The notes beneath the pieces are model-generated. The model searched no databases and was not told where the DNA came from. It was given only the letters and a program-made list of their open reading frames with translations. The position numbers were made by a program, and so were the translations under genes. From positions 323,428 to 387,427 of the forward strand of contig JAHBUQ010000002.1 of assembly GCA_019637995.1 (NCBI GenBank): a stretch of DNA of 64,000 nucleotides, in the 5' to 3' direction. The DNA is from Ignavibacteriota bacterium. Its GTDB lineage: Bacteria; Bacteroidota; Ignavibacteria; Kapaibacteriales; UBA2268. Below are positions 5,871 through 12,983 of this stretch, in pieces (the first letter of the stretch is position 1; every line of letters starts with the position of its first letter).

Positions 5871-6179
5871 TCACACTTTCACTTCAACATCTACACCGGC
5901 AGGCAATTCAAGTCTCATCAGAGCATCAATTGTCTTTTGGGTCGAGCTGAAAATGTCAATTAATCTTTTATGAATTCTAGTCTCAAATTGTTCTCTAGAT
6001 TTTTTATCTACGTGTGGCGAACGATTTACAGTATAAACCGAGCGTTTTGTAGGCAGGGGGATCGGTCCTGAAACGACCGCTCCCGTCTGCTTAACTGTCC
6101 GAACAATTCTTTCTGAAGATTTGTCAATCAGGTTATGATCGTATGATTTAAGTTTTATTCTTATTCTTTGTGTTGCCAC
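5871..6179 (-). CDS. rpsJ: 30S ribosomal protein S10
   Basis: [31 protein letters not shown]; GTG start. Confidence 0.99.
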
Positions 6180-6216: not shown

Positions 6217-7422
6217 TTATTCATTAATTTTAGTTACAACGCCTGCACCAACTGTTCTGCCGCCTTCACGAATAGCAAATCGCAAACCGTCTTCCATACC
6301 AACAGGTGTGATAAGTTCGATATCAATCGCATCAAGGTTGTCGCCGGGCATAACCATTTCTACGCCAGCCGGAAGTTCCATAGAGCCGGTTACGTCAGTA
6401 GTTCTGAAATAGAACTGTGGACGGTAACCATTAAAGAATGGAGTGTGACGTCCGCCTTCTTCTTTTTTCAATACGTAAACCTGAGCTGAAAATTTGTAGT
6501 GAGGTTTGATTGAACCCGGTTTGATAATAACCATACCACGTTCCAATTCATTTTTGTCAACACCGCGAAGAAGAAGACCAACATTATCGCCGGCACGTCC
6601 TTCATCGAGTAATTTACGAAACATTTCAACACCAGTACAAGTTGTTTTCTTTTGAAGACCGAAACCAACGATTTCAACTTCTTCGTTAACTTTTACAATA
6701 CCGCGTTCAATTCTACCAGTTCCTACAGTACCACGACCTGTAATTGAGAATACGTCTTCAACAGGCATAAGGAATGGTTTATCAACATCACGAATAGGTG
6801 TTGGAATATATGAGTCAACTGCATCCATTAAATTCCAGATACACTGGTATCTTTCATCATCAAGAGGAGCATCTGCTGCACCGGCATCAAGAGCATGAAG
6901 AGCTGAACCAGGGATAATCGGAATTTCATCGCCGGGGAAATTATATGAAGAAAGAAGATCACGAAGTTCCATTTCTACGAGCTCAAGAAGCTCTGGGTCA
7001 GCGATATCAACTTTATTCATAAATACAACTATACGTGGCACACCTACCTGACGAGCAAGAAGAATATGTTCACGAGTTTGTGGCATCGGACCATCAGTTG
7101 CAGCACATACGAGAATCGCACCATCCATCTGAGCAGCACCGGTAATCATATTTTTGATATAGTCGGCGTGACCGGGACAGTCAACGTGAGCATAGTGACG
7201 TGCTTCAGTCTGATACTCAACGTGAGCGGTAGCAATCGTTATTCCACGTGCTTTTTCTTCTGGCGCGTTGTCAATTGAGTCAAATGTTCTTTTTTCACCG
7301 CCTGATTTTTTTGACAATGCCATTGTTATGGCAGCGGTTAAAGTAGTTTTACCATGATCCACGTGACCAATTGTACCAACGTTCACGTGCGGCTTACTGC
7401 GATCAAATTTTTCTTTAGCCAT
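6217..7422 (-). CDS. tuf: Elongation factor Tu
   Basis: [39 protein letters not shown]; AGGAG Shine-Dalgarno upstream. Confidence 0.99.
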
Positions 7423-7479: not shown

Positions 7480-9534
7480 TTAATACAAACTTTTGATTAC
7501 AGCAGGTTCATAATGAGAAAATGTCATTGTGAAAACTGCTCTGCCCTGACTTTTGGAACGCAACTGAGTTACATATCCAAACAATTCCGAAAGAGGCGCT
7601 ATCGCTTTTACAAGCTGCATAGAAAGAACACTTTCGATACCTTCAACTCTGCCTCTTCTCGAGCTGATATCTGCAATTATATCGCCTACATATTCATCCG
7701 GCGAAGTAATATCCACTTTAAAAACAGGTTCAAGCATTATCGGTATAGCCTTCCGGCAAGCGTCCTTAACAGCTGTGGAAGCAGCTATTTTTGAGCCTAT
7801 TTCTGTAGTTACATCTTCGATATAATTACTTTCTAAAATCCTGACTTTGACATCTATCATAGGATACCCTGAGGGTCCTACATTCAAAGCTTCTCGAACA
7901 CCTTGCTCTAAAGCAGTAACAAGATTTTCGGGAATCTTCGATTTTCTGAGCATATTCTCAACGACAAGACCTTCATTTCTATCAGCAGGCATTACTTCAA
8001 TTTTTACATGTCCGTACTGATTCTTATTAGCCATTTGTCTCTCGAACTCTCCTACTTCTATCGCTTTTGCTGACACTGTTTCACGGTAAGATACTTGTGG
8101 TTTTCCAACTTTTGAAGGTATTTTGAACTCCCGGTTAAGTCTGTCCACAATAATTTCAAGATGAAGTTCACCAACACCGCTAATAATTGTCTGACCACTT
8201 TCTGCATCAGCTGTGAACCTGAAAGTAGGATCTTCATCGCTGAGTTTTTGTAATGTTTCAAGCAGTTTATCCTGATCGGCGATTGATTTGACTTCTATAG
8301 CCTGATTAATTACCGGTTCGGTAAAACTGATTTTTTCATATAAAAGTGGTTGATTTGTTTCACAAAGAGTATCACCGGTTCGGGTAAACTTTAAACCGGG
8401 AATAGTAACAATATCTCCGGCGTAAGCTTCCTGTATTTCTTCACGTTTGTTAGCATAAATTTTCATAATTTTCAGAATTTTTTCTTTCTTTTCAGCTGAA
8501 GTATTGCTGACACTGCTGCCAACTTTCAAACAGCCGGAATAAATTCTGATAAAAGTGAGTTTACCTATAAACGGATCGGTTATTAATTTGAAGGCAAGGG
8601 CTGAAAAAGGCTCGCTGTCATCAGGTTTGCGAGAAATCAGTTTTTCGGTATCCTTAACATCATAACCGGGGAAATACTCTACTTCGAGTGGTGATGGGAG
8701 GTATTGTATGATAGCATCCATTAAAGGCTGGACACCAACATTTTTTAGGGAAGAGCCACAAAGTACGGGTACAAATTTTTGCTCAATTGTACCACGTCTT
8801 ACAGCCGCCATGATTTCGGATTCAGATATCTCTTCGCCAGCAAGGAACTTTTCCAAAATATTATCTTCTATATCTGCCAGAGCTTCCAGCAAATAGGAAC
8901 GATATTCCTCAGCTTTTTCGACAAAAGCCGCAGGAATTTCATATTCAGCGTATTCCAAGCCGAGTGTTTCGATATCAAAGCGCAAGGATTTCATTTTAAT
9001 TAAATCCACCACGCCTTCGAATCTGTCTTCGGCGCCCATAGGGAACTGTACAGCAACAGGTTTAGCTTTGAGACGGGTTCTCATGGTTTCGAGAACTCTC
9101 TCAAAATCAGCACCGGTTCTATCCATTTTATTGACGAATGCAATTCTTGGAACACGATACTGATCTGCCTGATGCCAAACTGTTTCCGATTGTGGTTCAA
9201 CGCCGCCCACTCCGCAAAACAATGCGATAGCTCCATCAAGTACACGAAGTGAACGCTGCACTTCGGCGGTAAAATCAACATGACCGGGAGTATCTATCAA
9301 ATTAATTTGATAGTCATTCCACATACAGGTTGTTGCCGCAGACATTATCGTAATCCCTCTTTCTTTTTCCTGCTCCATGTAATCCATAAAAGCAGTACCG
9401 TCATCAACCGCTCCCATTTTATGAAGGTAACCCGAATAATACAAAATTCTTTCTGTAGTAGTCGTTTTACCAGCGTCTATGTGAGCCATAATGCCGATGT
9501 TGCGAAATTTCGATATGTCAACTTGACGAGTCAT
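7480..9534 (-). CDS. fusA: Elongation factor G family protein in the str operon; divergent, EF-G2/recycling-type features
   Basis: AHIDAGKTT, RGITI, DTPGHVDF and NKMD are intact; five-domain length; lies between rpsG and tuf; domain IV tip loops are degenerate (see findings). Confidence 0.93.
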   Translation of the reverse strand: MTRQVDISKFRNIGIMAHIDAGKTTTTERILYYSGYLHKMGAVDDGTAFMDYMEQEKERGITIMSAATTCMWNDYQINLIDTPGHVDFTAEVQRSLRVLDGAIALFCGVGGVEPQSETVWHQADQYRVPRIAFVNKMDRTGADFERVLETMRTRLKAKPVAVQFPMGAEDRFEGVVDLIKMKSLRFDIETLGLEYAEYEIPAAFVEKAEEYRSYLLEALADIEDNILEKFLAGEEISESEIMAAVRRGTIEQKFVPVLCGSSLKNVGVQPLMDAIIQYLPSPLEVEYFPGYDVKDTEKLISRKPDDSEPFSALAFKLITDPFIGKLTFIRIYSGCLKVGSSVSNTSAEKKEKILKIMKIYANKREEIQEAYAGDIVTIPGLKFTRTGDTLCETNQPLLYEKISFTEPVINQAIEVKSIADQDKLLETLQKLSDEDPTFRFTADAESGQTIISGVGELHLEIIVDRLNREFKIPSKVGKPQVSYRETVSAKAIEVGEFERQMANKNQYGHVKIEVMPADRNEGLVVENMLRKSKIPENLVTALEQGVREALNVGPSGYPMIDVKVRILESNYIEDVTTEIGSKIAASTAVKDACRKAIPIMLEPVFKVDITSPDEYVGDIIADISSRRGRVEGIESVLSMQLVKAIAPLSELFGYVTQLRSKSQGRAVFTMTFSHYEPAVIKSLY

Positions 9535-9578: not shown

Positions 9579-10046
9579 TTACCATTTAAAATGTGCAAAG
9601 GCTTTATTAGCTTCTGCCATTTTATGGGTATCTTCACGTTTCTTTACAGCCGAACCCTCACCTTTGGAGGCAGCCATAAATTCTGCAGCAAGTCTCTGAG
9701 ACATTTTTTTGTCACGGCGAGCCTTTGCATAATTTTTTATCCAGCGAATAGCAAGAGCAAGACGTCTTTCTTCGCGTACATCAACGGGCACCTGATAAGT
9801 AGCACCACCAACACGGCGGGAACGAACTTCTACCAGGGGAGCAACATTTGATATCGCTTTTTTGAAAACCTCTACCGGATCTTCATTAGTCTTTTCTTTA
9901 ACTATATCAAACGCATCGTATATAATTGTGCGGGCGACATTCTTTCTGCCCTCAAACATAATGTTGTTTACGAACTTAGCTACAACGTAATCATTGTATA
10001 TCGGATCTAAAACAACCGGTCTTTTTTCTGCTCTTCTTTTTCTCAT
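9579..10046 (-). CDS. rpsG: 30S ribosomal protein S7
   Basis: MRKRRAEKR, PLVEVRSRRVGGATYQVP, HKMAEANKAFAHFKW. Confidence 0.99.
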   Translation of the reverse strand: MRKRRAEKRPVVLDPIYNDYVVAKFVNNIMFEGRKNVARTIIYDAFDIVKEKTNEDPVEVFKKAISNVAPLVEVRSRRVGGATYQVPVDVREERRLALAIRWIKNYAKARRDKKMSQRLAAEFMAASKGEGSAVKKREDTHKMAEANKAFAHFKW

Positions 10047-10063
10047 TGCTGTATTTTATTTAA

Positions 10064-10477
10064 TTATTTCTTTTTACCTTTTGCAGCAGGTCCTGTAGCT
10101 TGTCCCGGTTTAGGACGCTTTGAACCATATTTTGATCTACCCTGACGTCTTCCGTCAACACCCTGAGTATCGGCGGTTCCACGTACGATGTGATATCTTA
10201 CACCCGGCAAATCTTTCACTCTGCCACCGCGTACATATACAATTGAGTGCTCCTGTAGGTTATGACCTTCTCCAGGAATATATGCCGTTACCTCAAAACC
10301 AGATGTAAGCCTTACACGGGCAACTTTTCTGAGAGCTGAGTTAGGCTTCTTAGGAGTAGTGGTATATACTCTGGTACATACACCTCTTCTTTGAGGGCAT
10401 GAATTCAGAGCCGCTGACTTACTCTTTTCTACTAACTTTTTTCTGCCCTTACGGACTAACTGACTGATAGTTGGCAC
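10064..10477 (-). CDS. rpsL: 30S ribosomal protein S12
   Basis: [32 protein letters not shown]; Lys-rich C-terminal tail; GTG start with GGAG SD. Confidence 0.99.
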
Positions 10478-10529
10478 TTTAAATCTCCAAAAATTATATT
10501 TTTCTTACACTTTACGGTGATAGAGCTTA

Positions 10530-10561
10530 CAAAAGTAATAAAGTTTTCCGAATCTGCCAAA
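10530..10561 (-). promoter_or_regulatory. Putative Bacteroidota-type housekeeping promoter of the str/S10 operon
   Basis: Minus strand reads TTTG (10561-10558), a 20-nt spacer, then TACTTTTG (10537-10530). This matches the TTTG-N19-21-TAnnTTTG consensus and lies ~50 nt upstream of rpsL. Confidence 0.6.
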
Positions 10562-10723
10562 TTATTTTTCAACTTTTTTTGATTTTTTTCAAAAATATTT
10601 TAACTTCTTTTTTAAAATATCAAGAATATGGCTTTTTATAAGTAAATATTACACTTTGGACGGTAATTACCTGAATTAAGTATTTTTTAAAAAAATTTTT
10701 ATATTATCTTTTGAAAACTAATA

Positions 10724-11599
10724 TTACCTTTTATAATATTTTTTTCTTTTCTGTGGTTGAATCTCATTTTTTGCACGGTCATTAACATTGAATGTATAGT
10801 TAATACGTATAAAAGGTAAAATATTATTTACAGAGTTAGTATATTTATTAGCAAAAGTATAAATATAATTTCCTCCAATCACAAGATAATATGATGGAGA
10901 CAGGTCTATTGATACTCCTCCGCTTATCAGCAGATTGTGATTTCTGATTCCTTCGCTTTCATAAGCAAGATTATCCCAGGTTGTTACCTTAAACAAACTT
11001 TGATTAACGTAAGCAATTCTTAAAAAGAGAGTCGGATAATTATCCCGCCGTACTGTATTAAATGTAACAGATCCAAAATAATTCCAAGCAAACGAACTTC
11101 CACGCGTACTGTCATATAATCTGCCTTCTCCCATAAGCCATTTAAAGTTGTATGAGAAATCAGCATCAATATGCCTGAAATCAAATCCGGCTCCTACATC
11201 ATAACGAATTGCAAAATTATCATACTTTTCGATATGACCAATTCCCAACATACTTCCAAATAAAATTTTTCCATCTGTCAAACCACCATCAAAACCTGCG
11301 AAAATTCCAATCTTATTATCAACCTTATAATCAAAATGTGCATCAATAATAGTATTTACAATTGTTACCTCACCCTTTTCAAGTCTTTCATCAGGTATTA
11401 ATTGAAAATTTTTATTTTTGTTATGAGAAATTCCAATTGAAGCATCAACCCTGCTTGTATCACAGGGTTTTGTAATATGAACAGGTAAATATGCCGCACG
11501 GGATTTCACCTCAGCATTATGCACTATCATATTTTCAGCCGTGCACGAAACAAGTAGCACAAACACACTGATTACATATAATATTCTGATTACTAACAT
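10724..11599 (-). CDS. Hypothetical lipoprotein, probably beta-strand rich / outer membrane
   Basis: Hydrophobic signal ending LLVSC; alternating aromatic/Gly pattern; basic C-terminal tail. Confidence 0.6.
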   Translation of the reverse strand: MLVIRILYVISVFVLLVSCTAENMIVHNAEVKSRAAYLPVHITKPCDTSRVDASIGISHNKNKNFQLIPDERLEKGEVTIVNTIIDAHFDYKVDNKIGIFAGFDGGLTDGKILFGSMLGIGHIEKYDNFAIRYDVGAGFDFRHIDADFSYNFKWLMGEGRLYDSTRGSSFAWNYFGSVTFNTVRRDNYPTLFLRIAYVNQSLFKVTTWDNLAYESEGIRNHNLLISGGVSIDLSPSYYLVIGGNYIYTFANKYTNSVNNILPFIRINYTFNVNDRAKNEIQPQKRKKYYKR

Positions 11600-11855
11600 C
11601 CATTTGTCAGATAATTTCGTAATAATAGTTTTTCAAAAATACAATTATTATCTATATATTCAATACAATTTGTTTTTGCCGGATTATCTATTAATCAGCA
11701 ATTACTCAATGATGATAATAGTTAGCAACTGCATTGTTGATATGTAATGTAAATTCATTTACTAACCCGCAATCTAAACAATTTCTCAATTGTAAAATAA
11801 TAAATTACCAATTTGTTTGTTTATATAAAATTATGCTCAATAAATTGAATATTTT

Positions 11856-12983
11856 ATGAAATTCGACTATTTGATTGTAGGTGCAGGTTATGCGGGTAGC
11901 ATTCTTGCAGAAAGAATCGCAACCCAACTGGATAAAAAGGTTTTAATCGTTGACAAGCGTGACCATATCGCCGGAAATGCTTATGATTACTATAACAATG
12001 ACGGAGTGCTTGTTCATAAGTACGGTCCCCATATTTTCCATACTTCATCAAAAAAAGTTTGGGATTACCTCTCTGAATTTACTGAATGGAACACATACAA
12101 CCATTATGTTCAGGCAATAGTCGAAGGAAAACGTGTACCTGTTCCGTTCAACTTAAATTCTATCTATGCCCTTTTTCCACAAAAATATGCAGAAAAACTT
12201 GAAACCAAGCTAATTGAAAGGTATGGATACGGAATTAAAATCCCAATCCTGAAAATGAAAGAGGTCGAAGATGAGGAATTGCGGTTTTTGGCTGAGTATA
12301 TATATAAAAATGTATTTTACGGATACACAGTCAAGCAGTGGAATTTAAAGCCGGAAGAGCTCGATTATAATGTTACTTCCCGAGTACCTGTTTATATTTC
12401 ACGAGATGACAGATATTTTCAGGATACTTATCAAGCACTGCCAAAAAACGGCTATACCGAAATGTTCAAACGAATAATTTCACATCCAAATATCCGAATT
12501 TTGCTAAAAACAGATTATCGCGAAGCTGTGGAATATATTAAATTCGATAAGCTGATTTACACAGGACCACTTGATTATTATTTCGACAATATGTTCGGTG
12601 AGCTTCCATACAGAAGTCTGAATTTTGACATTAAGACATTTGATACTGAGCAATATCAGGAAGTCGGTCAGGTAAATTATCCCAATAATTATGACTACAC
12701 GCGAATAACCGAATTCAAACATTTATCACAGCAAAAGCATCTTAAATCAAGCGTAGCTTTCGAATATCCTCAGGCATATATTCCGGGAGTAAATGACCCT
12801 TATTATCCAATTCCCCGCCCCGACAATAATGAGCTTTTCGCAAAATATAAAGCTGAAGCAGATAAATTAGATGGTTCCGTATATTTTGTAGGCAGACTTG
12901 CTGATTATAAATATTACAATATGGATCAGATTGCCGGAGTTGCGCTTCAGCTTTTTGAAAAGAAAATTGCTAAATCAAGATAG
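11856..12983 (+). CDS. glf: UDP-galactopyranose mutase
   Basis: IVGAGYAG FAD motif, HIAGNAYD, HKYGPHIFHT, DRYFQDTYQALP, EPYYP-like DPYYP, GRLADYKYYNMDQ. Confidence 0.96.
   Translation: MKFDYLIVGAGYAGSILAERIATQLDKKVLIVDKRDHIAGNAYDYYNNDGVLVHKYGPHIFHTSSKKVWDYLSEFTEWNTYNHYVQAIVEGKRVPVPFNLNSIYALFPQKYAEKLETKLIERYGYGIKIPILKMKEVEDEELRFLAEYIYKNVFYGYTVKQWNLKPEELDYNVTSRVPVYISRDDRYFQDTYQALPKNGYTEMFKRIISHPNIRILLKTDYREAVEYIKFDKLIYTGPLDYYFDNMFGELPYRSLNFDIKTFDTEQYQEVGQVNYPNNYDYTRITEFKHLSQQKHLKSSVAFEYPQAYIPGVNDPYYPIPRPDNNELFAKYKAEADKLDGSVYFVGRLADYKYYNMDQIAGVALQLFEKKIAKSR

Follow-up and report, generated by a model that had tools for sequence, protein, structure and literature searches.

A str-operon elongation factor G with a degenerate domain IV tip, and its spdEFG1-type partner, in Kapaibacteria

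The DNA analysed here is a stretch of 64,000 nucleotides (the window) from contig JAHBUQ010000002.1, positions 323428-387427 (contig C2 of the genome that we call G000), taken from a 3.92 Mb, 98.5% complete assembly. Related loci bear NCBI titles such as Candidatus Kapaibacterium, a genus that NCBI taxonomy assigns to the family Kapaibacteriaceae of the phylum Bacteroidota, within the Fibrobacteres-Chlorobi-Bacteroidetes (FCB) group. Our subject is the product of fusA in the str operon of the window, a 684-amino-acid elongation factor G (EF-G) that we name KapA. An earlier note, made from the letters of the window, had read this gene as a str-operon fusA with intact GTPase motifs and had proposed that it encodes an EF-G for ribosome recycling rather than a canonical translocase, the latter being encoded elsewhere in the genome.

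The str-operon fusA and its domain IV tip

The window contains the gene order rpsL-rpsG-fusA-tuf-rpsJ, as judged from the list of open reading frames (ORFs), with all five genes on the same strand and intergenic gaps of 17-57 nt (Table 1). A scan for promoters and terminators gave no signal above shuffled expectation, and no terminator-like sites were found on the minus strand between rpsG, fusA and tuf. In Pfam, KapA carries all five EF-G domains (GTP_EFTU, EF-G_D2, EFG_III, EFG_IV and EFG_C), which, together with the G1-G4 motifs and the catalytic histidine, make it a member of the EF-G family. Indeed, AHIDAGKT, RGITI, DTPGH and NKMD were all located and do not vary among 36 relatives, and the reading of an str-operon fusA with intact GTPase motifs was therefore correct. 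On TIGR00484, the NCBI equivalog model for EF-G, KapA scored 919 bits (cut-off 659).

Table 1. Features of the str operon and of KapA (positions are those of the window)
Feature	Position	Strand	Character	Evidence
rpsL (S12)	10064..10477	-	first str-operon gene	ORF; 81-96% identity to rpsL of related loci, conserved order
rpsG (S7)	9579..10046	-		ORF; conserved order
fusA (KapA)	7480..9534	-	ancestral slot, intact G domain, degenerate domain IV tip, without C-terminal helix	
G1/P-loop	9463..9486	-	AHIDAGKT, canonical	invariant in 36 KapA-type sequences
Switch I/G2	9334..9360	-	RGITIMSAA, catalytic Thr retained	motif position; 36-sequence alignment
G3	9280..9294	-	DTPGH, including catalytic His	motif position; 36-sequence alignment
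G4	9121..9132	-	NKMD	motif position
Domain IV loop I	8017..8037	-	QMANKNQ, residues 500-506, replaces QSGGRGQ; two tip glycines gone	
Domain IV third loop	7930..7947	-	RKSKIP, replaces KGGVIP	
Domain IV loop II	7804..7830	-	SNYIEDVTT, replaces GSYHDVDSS; invariant His (E. coli H583/584) replaced by Ile	
KapA C-terminus	7483..7521	-	FSHYEPAVIKSLY, ~12 residues short of EFG-I, no C-terminal helix in model	indel table; AlphaFold2
tuf (EF-Tu)	6217..7422	-	57 nt downstream of fusA	ORF; conserved order
rpsJ (S10)	5871..6179	-	start of S10 cluster	ORF; conserved order

KapA differs from canonical EF-G at the tip of domain IV. Alignment with E. coli EF-G showed that its three tip loops replace KQSGGRGQ, KGGVIP and GSYHDVDSS. 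The earlier note had placed the altered loop I exactly, and the changes that it had read in the other two loops, including loss of the histidine, were borne out by the alignment. Canonical EFG-I proteins have Q-x-G-G-x-G in loop I, G-G in the third loop and G-x-x-H-x-V-D-S in loop II; KapA lacks this set of residues, and it does have the str-operon location of a canonical EFG-I.

We refer below to the spdEFG1/spdEFG2 pair, which Atkinson and Baldauf reportedly described in 2011 from Spirochaetes, Planctomycetes and Deltaproteobacteria, and to KapB, a second EF-G of the same genome. The changes at the tip go far beyond chance. Eleven residues, numbered as in E. coli with the Met included, were scored (Q508, G510, G511, G513, G542, G543, G581, H584, V586, D587 and S588). 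All were 100% conserved in each of four groups, namely class EFG-I (25 sequences), phylum EFG-I (22), KapB-type proteins (19) and spdEFG1 of spirochaetes and deltaproteobacteria (10). Among 64 distinct KapA-type sequences, none of the eleven positions was conserved as in EFG-I; position 584 is occupied by I, D, E and others, with His outside the three commonest residues. The spdEFG2-like proteins of spirochaetes and deltaproteobacteria have lost tip residues in the same pattern, and the tip of human mtEFG2 is likewise altered (TLGDKRH and LTIHPGTSTT in 7NSH). Additionally, the indel table showed that the last ~12 residues are missing from both KapA-type and spdEFG2-like proteins. An AlphaFold2 model of KapA built on 36 relatives (mean predicted local distance difference test score, pLDDT, 79) matched EF-G structures in Foldseek with a template modelling (TM) score of about 0.7. 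Domain IV was confidently folded in this model (pLDDT 83-91), and nothing helical followed the last strand of domain V.

KapA is under strong purifying selection, and its excess divergence lies mainly in domain IV. Mean pairwise identity in this domain was 42% among KapA-type proteins, compared with 69% for the KapB type and 71% for EFG-I of the class; the spdEFG2-like set from spirochaetes and deltaproteobacteria was similarly low (36%). Domain II excepted (54% versus 65-66% in the KapB type and class EFG-I), the shortfall elsewhere was far smaller, with values for the KapA type, KapB type and class EFG-I of 77%, 82% and 85% in the first part of the G domain and 68%, 78% and 78% in domain III. 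When pairs were matched by genome, using eight genomes that have both genes, the KapA type was the less conserved in 28/28 comparisons. The ratio of nonsynonymous to synonymous substitution rates (dN/dS) was 0.03-0.08 for the whole KapA-type gene and, in unsaturated pairs, 0.035-0.095 for domain IV, and the ORF is intact in >60 genomes. More than 150 positions are invariant among the 36 KapA relatives, and none of these lies within the three tip loops.

The partner EF-G genes and their distribution

A search of the whole assembly returned three full-length EF-G genes, encoding KapA, KapB and KapC, and found no canonical EFG-I in this 98.5% complete assembly. The EF-G query (E <= 0.001) otherwise gave only LepA/TypA-sized frames, EF-Tu and IF2, with no RF3-like match in the whole genome. 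The gene for ribosome recycling factor (RRF), frr, is present in a single copy.

KapB (694 aa; G000:C2:962179-964260) is encoded 630 kb from KapA, to which it is 42% identical, and its tips are canonical (KKQTGGSGQF, GGAIP and GSFHAVDSS). It is 56-61% identical to spdEFG1 proteins of spirochaetes and deltaproteobacteria versus 43-49% to EFG-I of Bacteroidota, and its top match in the PDB is mitochondrial EF-G1 (787 bits). The indel table revealed a diagnostic 3-residue insert in switch I, which is the defining mark of spdEFG1 (Margus et al., PMC3150367), and three shared 1-residue deletions. We built a quick tree of 93 rows (LG+C20+F+G4), one without domain IV and a careful tree of 66 rows, and ran two approximately unbiased (AU) tests. 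KapB grouped with spdEFG1 and mtEFG1 with a support of 100 in the 93-row tree, and in the 66-row tree it joined spdEFG1 at 96/81 and mtEFG1 at 100/100 (ultrafast bootstrap, UFBoot/Shimodaira-Hasegawa-like approximate likelihood ratio test, SH-aLRT). By sequence, KapB is a clear orthologue of spdEFG1/mtEFG1, and the prediction of a translocase elsewhere in the genome thus has a strong candidate. On TIGR00484 KapB scored 954 bits, versus 919 for KapA. Since both proteins pass this model, NCBIfam labels both 'EF-G', automatic annotation names both genes 'elongation factor G', and family assignment is blind to the split.

The third protein, KapC (709 aa; L003:1435-3564, on contig C1 of G000), has a P-loop of the EFG-II type (GHAGSGKT) and canonical domain IV tips. 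Against NF058620, the model for EF-G2 of Bacteroides, it scored 936 bits, slightly below the cut-off of 1000. KapC is an EFG-II that resembles Bacteroides EF-G2 and, like that protein, may be an EF-G2 of the starvation type.

In our samples of the phylum and the class, the KapB type is confined to one order. An even sample of 150 genomes from the phylum contained 7 with a KapB-type protein (69-72% identity), all belonging to the order of the window and including its own genome; each of the remainder gave one best match to KapB at 43-49% identity, which is its EFG-I. The same 7 genomes carry both KapA-type and KapB-type genes in a sample of 60 genomes from the class. In each of the other 54, EFG-I is canonical, spdEFG1 is absent and EFG-II is usually present as well; 24 of these EFG-I proteins were fetched, and they have canonical tips throughout and an rpsL-rpsG-fusA context in all but one.

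Further genomes were reached via KapA-type loci, and in 14/15 of them a KapB-type gene (69-89% identity) was found. The exception, G211 (locus L022), has a KapA-type str gene and no spdEFG1. In its place is an EFG-I-like gene of 692 aa (L185:2016-4094) that has canonical tip loops and is not part of the str operon. This reflects either replacement of the partner or contamination of the metagenome-assembled genome. In total, an EF-G with canonical tips is present in 22/22 surveyed genomes with a KapA-type gene, and this is an spdEFG1 in 21/22. Co-occurrence with spdEFG1 and absence of EFG-I, which characterise proteins of the spdEFG2 type, were seen in the genome of the window itself, in 7/7 genomes of the order and in 14/15 of the further genomes. 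The single-contig genome G117 and the closed chromosome CP058732.1 hold only a KapA-type gene, a KapB-type gene and EFG-II, with no EFG-I. The earlier note had allowed that KapA might prove to be the only EF-G of a complete genome; neither the genome of the window, with its KapB and EFG-II, nor these two relatives fits that description.

KapA-type genes were invariably found within rpsL-rpsG-X-tuf-rpsJ. The KapB-type gene is the immediate upstream neighbour of rpsL, in the same orientation, at about 24 related loci (among them L021, L030, L034, L039, L046, L048, L052, L054, L057, L058, L065 and L088). In the genome of the window, KapB is displaced from the str operon, and the ORF that comes after it (L095:1-603) resembles a transposase and contains CxxC pairs, which suggests a rearrangement. 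Neither the spdEFG1 nor the spdEFG2-like gene had str neighbours in the spirochaete and deltaproteobacterial genomes examined.

Several further observations concern these loci. Just upstream of rpsL in the window is a 291-aa ORF (10724-11599, minus strand) to which no function is assigned and whose N-terminal part includes a hydrophobic segment; its surroundings (10001-12000) are AT-rich (GC 0.33), and relatives carry their spdEFG1-type gene there. Two genomes of the Planctomycetes-Verrucomicrobia-Chlamydiae (PVC) group (Planctomycetota G200, locus L172, and Kiritimatiellae G201, locus L165) have a divergent EF-G in the order rpsL-rpsG-X-rpsJ, with no tuf, and a member of the Spirochaetales (G191, locus L166) has three EF-Gs, namely spdEFG1, an spdEFG2-like protein and an EFG-I-like protein in the str operon. 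Finally, the record titles 'uncultured Hyphomicrobiales bacterium', 'Chloroherpeton thalassium' and 'Rickettsia typhi' do not fit their loci, most of which have str operons of the Kapaibacteria type. The taxonomic labels of the loci with doubtful titles (L014, L017-L019, L021, L024, L028-L030, L036, L037, L049-L051, L053, L057, L064, L067 and L088) look wrong.

Origin and proposed function of KapA

KapA-type proteins were monophyletic in the 93-row tree (support 100), where they stood beside the spdEFG2-like proteins (SH-aLRT 94) and apart from EFG-I of Bacteroidota. The 66-row tree grouped them with both spdEFG2-like proteins and mtEFG2 at 84/93 (UFBoot/SH-aLRT). KapA thus lay outside canonical EFG-I in every tree made, and the clustering within EFG-I that the earlier note had named as contrary evidence did not appear. 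Support for the grouping of KapA-type with spdEFG2 was 71 once domain IV, the C-terminus and the longest rows had been removed, and KapA-type, spdEFG2-like and mtEFG2 proteins form the longest branches in the tree. Constraining the KapA type to group with Bacteroidota EFG-I was not rejected (AU p = 0.36 and 0.076). Two kinds of evidence point the other way. Of its lineage-specific residues, the KapA type has 8 in common with Bacteroidota EFG-I and 2 in common with spdEFG2-like proteins, and it holds the exact ancestral fusA slot. The same ambiguity was met for the EFGs of deltaproteobacteria by Margus et al. (PMC3150367).

The trees therefore lean towards KapA being an spdEFG2, and its gene neighbourhood and signature residues towards a resident fusA that diverged where it stood. 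Because these lines of evidence conflict, we describe KapA as working like spdEFG2/mtEFG2 without assigning it to a subfamily. Of the proposal that a recycling paralogue sits in the ancestral position, the slot itself and the altered tip stand, and orthology with spdEFG2 is not established.

The earlier note had also drawn attention to an N-terminal likeness between KapA and human GFM2. The pattern that it gave for GFM2 (ERILYYSGY...VDDG...ITIQSAA) does match PDB 7NSH chain BC. However, early-branching KapA-type proteins read FYTGV...EVHEG, as in EFG-I, and ERILYYSGY/VDDG was therefore dropped as a family signature; on this sequence evidence the likeness is probably convergent, and we treat it as convergent or coincidental.

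One possible history, which we put forward tentatively and rate at somewhat less than an even chance, is that KapA is the lineage's own str-operon fusA and not an orthologue of spdEFG2. The ancestor of the order would have gained an spdEFG1-type translocase just upstream of rpsL, after which the resident fusA would have lost its tip and C-terminal helix in place and become a recycling factor. If correct, spdEFG2 would be an end point that evolution has reached repeatedly, a grade whose members are united in part by long-branch attraction, rather than one ancient family. Gaining a dedicated translocase would then predictably push the resident EF-G towards recycling-only status.

Irrespective of its origin, we favour, with a probability of about 70%, a model whereby KapA remains a functional EF-G that hydrolyses GTP, no longer serves in translocation of tRNA-mRNA and acts with RRF to split post-termination ribosomes, while KapB translocates. 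Two universally conserved glycines of loop I allow domain IV to enter the decoding centre during translocation, and one of them is lost in the recycling-only factors EF-G2mt and Borrelia EF-G2; the shorter C-terminal helix of EF-G2mt permits binding together with RRF (Koripella et al., PMC8203779). KapA has both features, its loop I glycines being changed from GG to AN and its C-terminal end being shortened, with no helix in the model, as in proteins of the spdEFG2 type. A tested precedent for an str-operon copy acting in recycling is EF-G1A of Pseudomonas aeruginosa (PMC3832671). We assign recycling to KapA and translocation to KapB because KapA has lost the glycines, the His motif and the C-terminal helix, and has kept a constrained G domain and a likewise constrained body of domain IV. 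According to this model, KapA would hydrolyse GTP on the ribosome, but its tip, having lost both glycines of loop I as well as the His of loop II and VDSS, would be unable to contact the codon-anticodon helix within the decoding centre. The body of domain IV should still be able to push RRF and break bridge B2a, and absence of the C-terminal helix would remove a potential clash with RRF. KapA and the single RRF would then split post-termination ribosomes, and the distant spdEFG1-type KapB would carry out translocation. The split in EF-G function that the earlier note had suggested is thus supported at the level of sequence by the set of paralogues, the loss of the tip and the pattern of co-occurrence.

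Several observations weigh against this assignment. Among solved structures in the PDB, KapA is closer to canonical bacterial EF-G (785 bits) than to mtEFG2 (491 bits), and it clears the cut-off of the NCBI EF-G equivalog model. Its gene adjoins tuf in the highly expressed str operon, the expected place of the main translocase. Since the changes in KapA are local, however, its overall similarity to canonical EF-G does not settle its function. The loop I GG is retained in some KapA-type relatives (e.g. QMGGKNQ and PIGGKAQ), so that glycine loss alone is not the rule. Also, the canonical tips of KapC mean that the division of labour may span three proteins.

KapA might instead have a role distinct from RRF-dependent recycling, such as rescue of stalled ribosomes, quality control or an activity resembling ribosome protection, leaving recycling to KapB or KapC. 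Purifying selection on domain IV and the weakly conserved new motifs GKNQ and T-T-E would suit such a role. Tet proteins are EF-G paralogues with altered domain IV tips and non-translocase roles, and the partner of spdEFG1 in Fibrobacter was classed as 'Tet' by hidden Markov model (HMM) (Atkinson 2015, PMC4342817). We nevertheless consider this unlikely, because mtEFG2 and Borrelia EF-G2, whose role in recycling has been characterised by experiment, show the same set of changes, and recycling is the sole essential function of EF-G that does not require the tip (PMC8203779). KapA scored 391 bits on tet_protect (NF012153), the model for tetracycline ribosomal protection proteins, well short of the cut-off of 775, and Tet-like ribosome protection was ruled out on this basis.

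A further explanation, to which we give distinctly low odds, is that KapA is still the main, bifunctional EF-G, its odd tip being tolerated by the ribosome of this lineage, with KapB an accessory for special conditions. This would fit the place between rpsG and tuf, the score on TIGR00484, the intact G domain and the strong purifying selection. Against it, tip residues that are invariant in all the translocating EF-G groups sampled are unconstrained across the KapA clade, KapB-type proteins evolve more slowly in every genome-matched comparison and KapB outscores KapA on the EF-G model, and the KapA-type gene was never found without a partner bearing canonical tips.

Lastly, the faster evolution of KapA relative to EFG-I and its highly variable domain IV might suggest a decaying relic of the old fusA that is heading for loss, but this is barely credible given an ORF intact in so many genomes, at least 150 invariant positions, the low dN/dS and the confidently modelled domain IV. 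A pseudogene as such was ruled out by dN/dS together with the invariant G-domain residues.

Comparison with known split EF-G systems

In published surveys spdEFGs were restricted to Spirochaetes, Planctomycetes and Deltaproteobacteria (Margus et al. 2011, PMC3150367). A later survey added Fibrobacter succinogenes, with spdEFG1, no canonical EFG and a second protein classed as 'Tet', and lists Bdellovibrio bacteriovorus with EFG and spdEFG1 and Chlorobi with EFG and EFGII; Kapaibacteria and Ignavibacteria are absent from its table (Atkinson 2015, PMC4342817). Our literature searches found nothing relevant on an EF-G split in Kapabacteria or Ignavibacteria. The expectation that a case from the FCB group would be notable therefore holds in that Kapaibacteria are a new lineage for such a split, and is tempered by the precedent of sorts in Fibrobacter.

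An order of uncultured Bacteroidota would thus join mitochondria, spirochaetes, planctomycetes and deltaproteobacteria among the groups with a split EF-G system, in which translocation and recycling each have a dedicated factor. The clade amounts to a clean natural experiment. As sister orders keep one canonical EF-G in the same slot, the path by which a bifunctional factor became specialised should be traceable, and residues needed only for translocation could be read from the pattern of lost constraint. The case is also relevant to the question of whether spdEFG2 forms a single family or has arisen repeatedly. In practical terms, caution is needed before fusA from such genomes is taken as a single-copy marker in phylogenetics.

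The closest counterpart is the spdEFG1/spdEFG2 pair, of which EF-G1 and EF-G2 of Borrelia burgdorferi are the tested case. As in Kapaibacteria, canonical EFG-I is absent, the paralogue with canonical tips carries the 3-residue insert in switch I, and the other has degenerate tips, a truncated C-terminus and a fast-evolving domain IV. In contrast to that pair, the degenerate copy of Kapaibacteria occupies the ancestral rpsL-rpsG-fusA-tuf slot, and the spdEFG1-type gene lies upstream of rpsL in many related loci, whereas neither gene of the pair is in the str operon in the spirochaete and deltaproteobacterial genomes examined.

In human mitochondria, translocation and recycling are likewise divided between two EF-Gs, EF-G1mt (GFM1), the best PDB match of KapB, and EF-G2mt/RRF2mt (GFM2). 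EF-G2mt resembles KapA in having an altered loop I, no loop II His motif and a shorter C-terminal helix. KapA, however, is far less similar overall to EF-G2mt than to bacterial EF-G, its GFM2-like N-terminal string is not clade-wide, and it is missing a C-terminal extension that EF-G2mt retains.

The arrangement of KapA and KapB is also like that of Pseudomonas aeruginosa, in which EF-G1A, a poor translocase, is encoded in the str operon and acts with RRF, and EF-G1B, encoded elsewhere, is the translocase (PMC3832671). The Pseudomonas proteins are nevertheless a recent pair, 84% identical and both EFG-I, whereas KapA and KapB are far more divergent and belong to different subfamilies. Bdellovibrio and Fibrobacter, compared by HMM class alone, resemble Kapaibacteria in combining spdEFG1 with another EF-G to which a class other than spdEFG2 is given (PMC4342817), and Fibrobacter shares with Kapaibacteria its membership of the FCB group. 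Taken together, these comparisons show a system of a kind already known, to which Kapaibacteria add a new lineage whose operon arrangement is distinctive.

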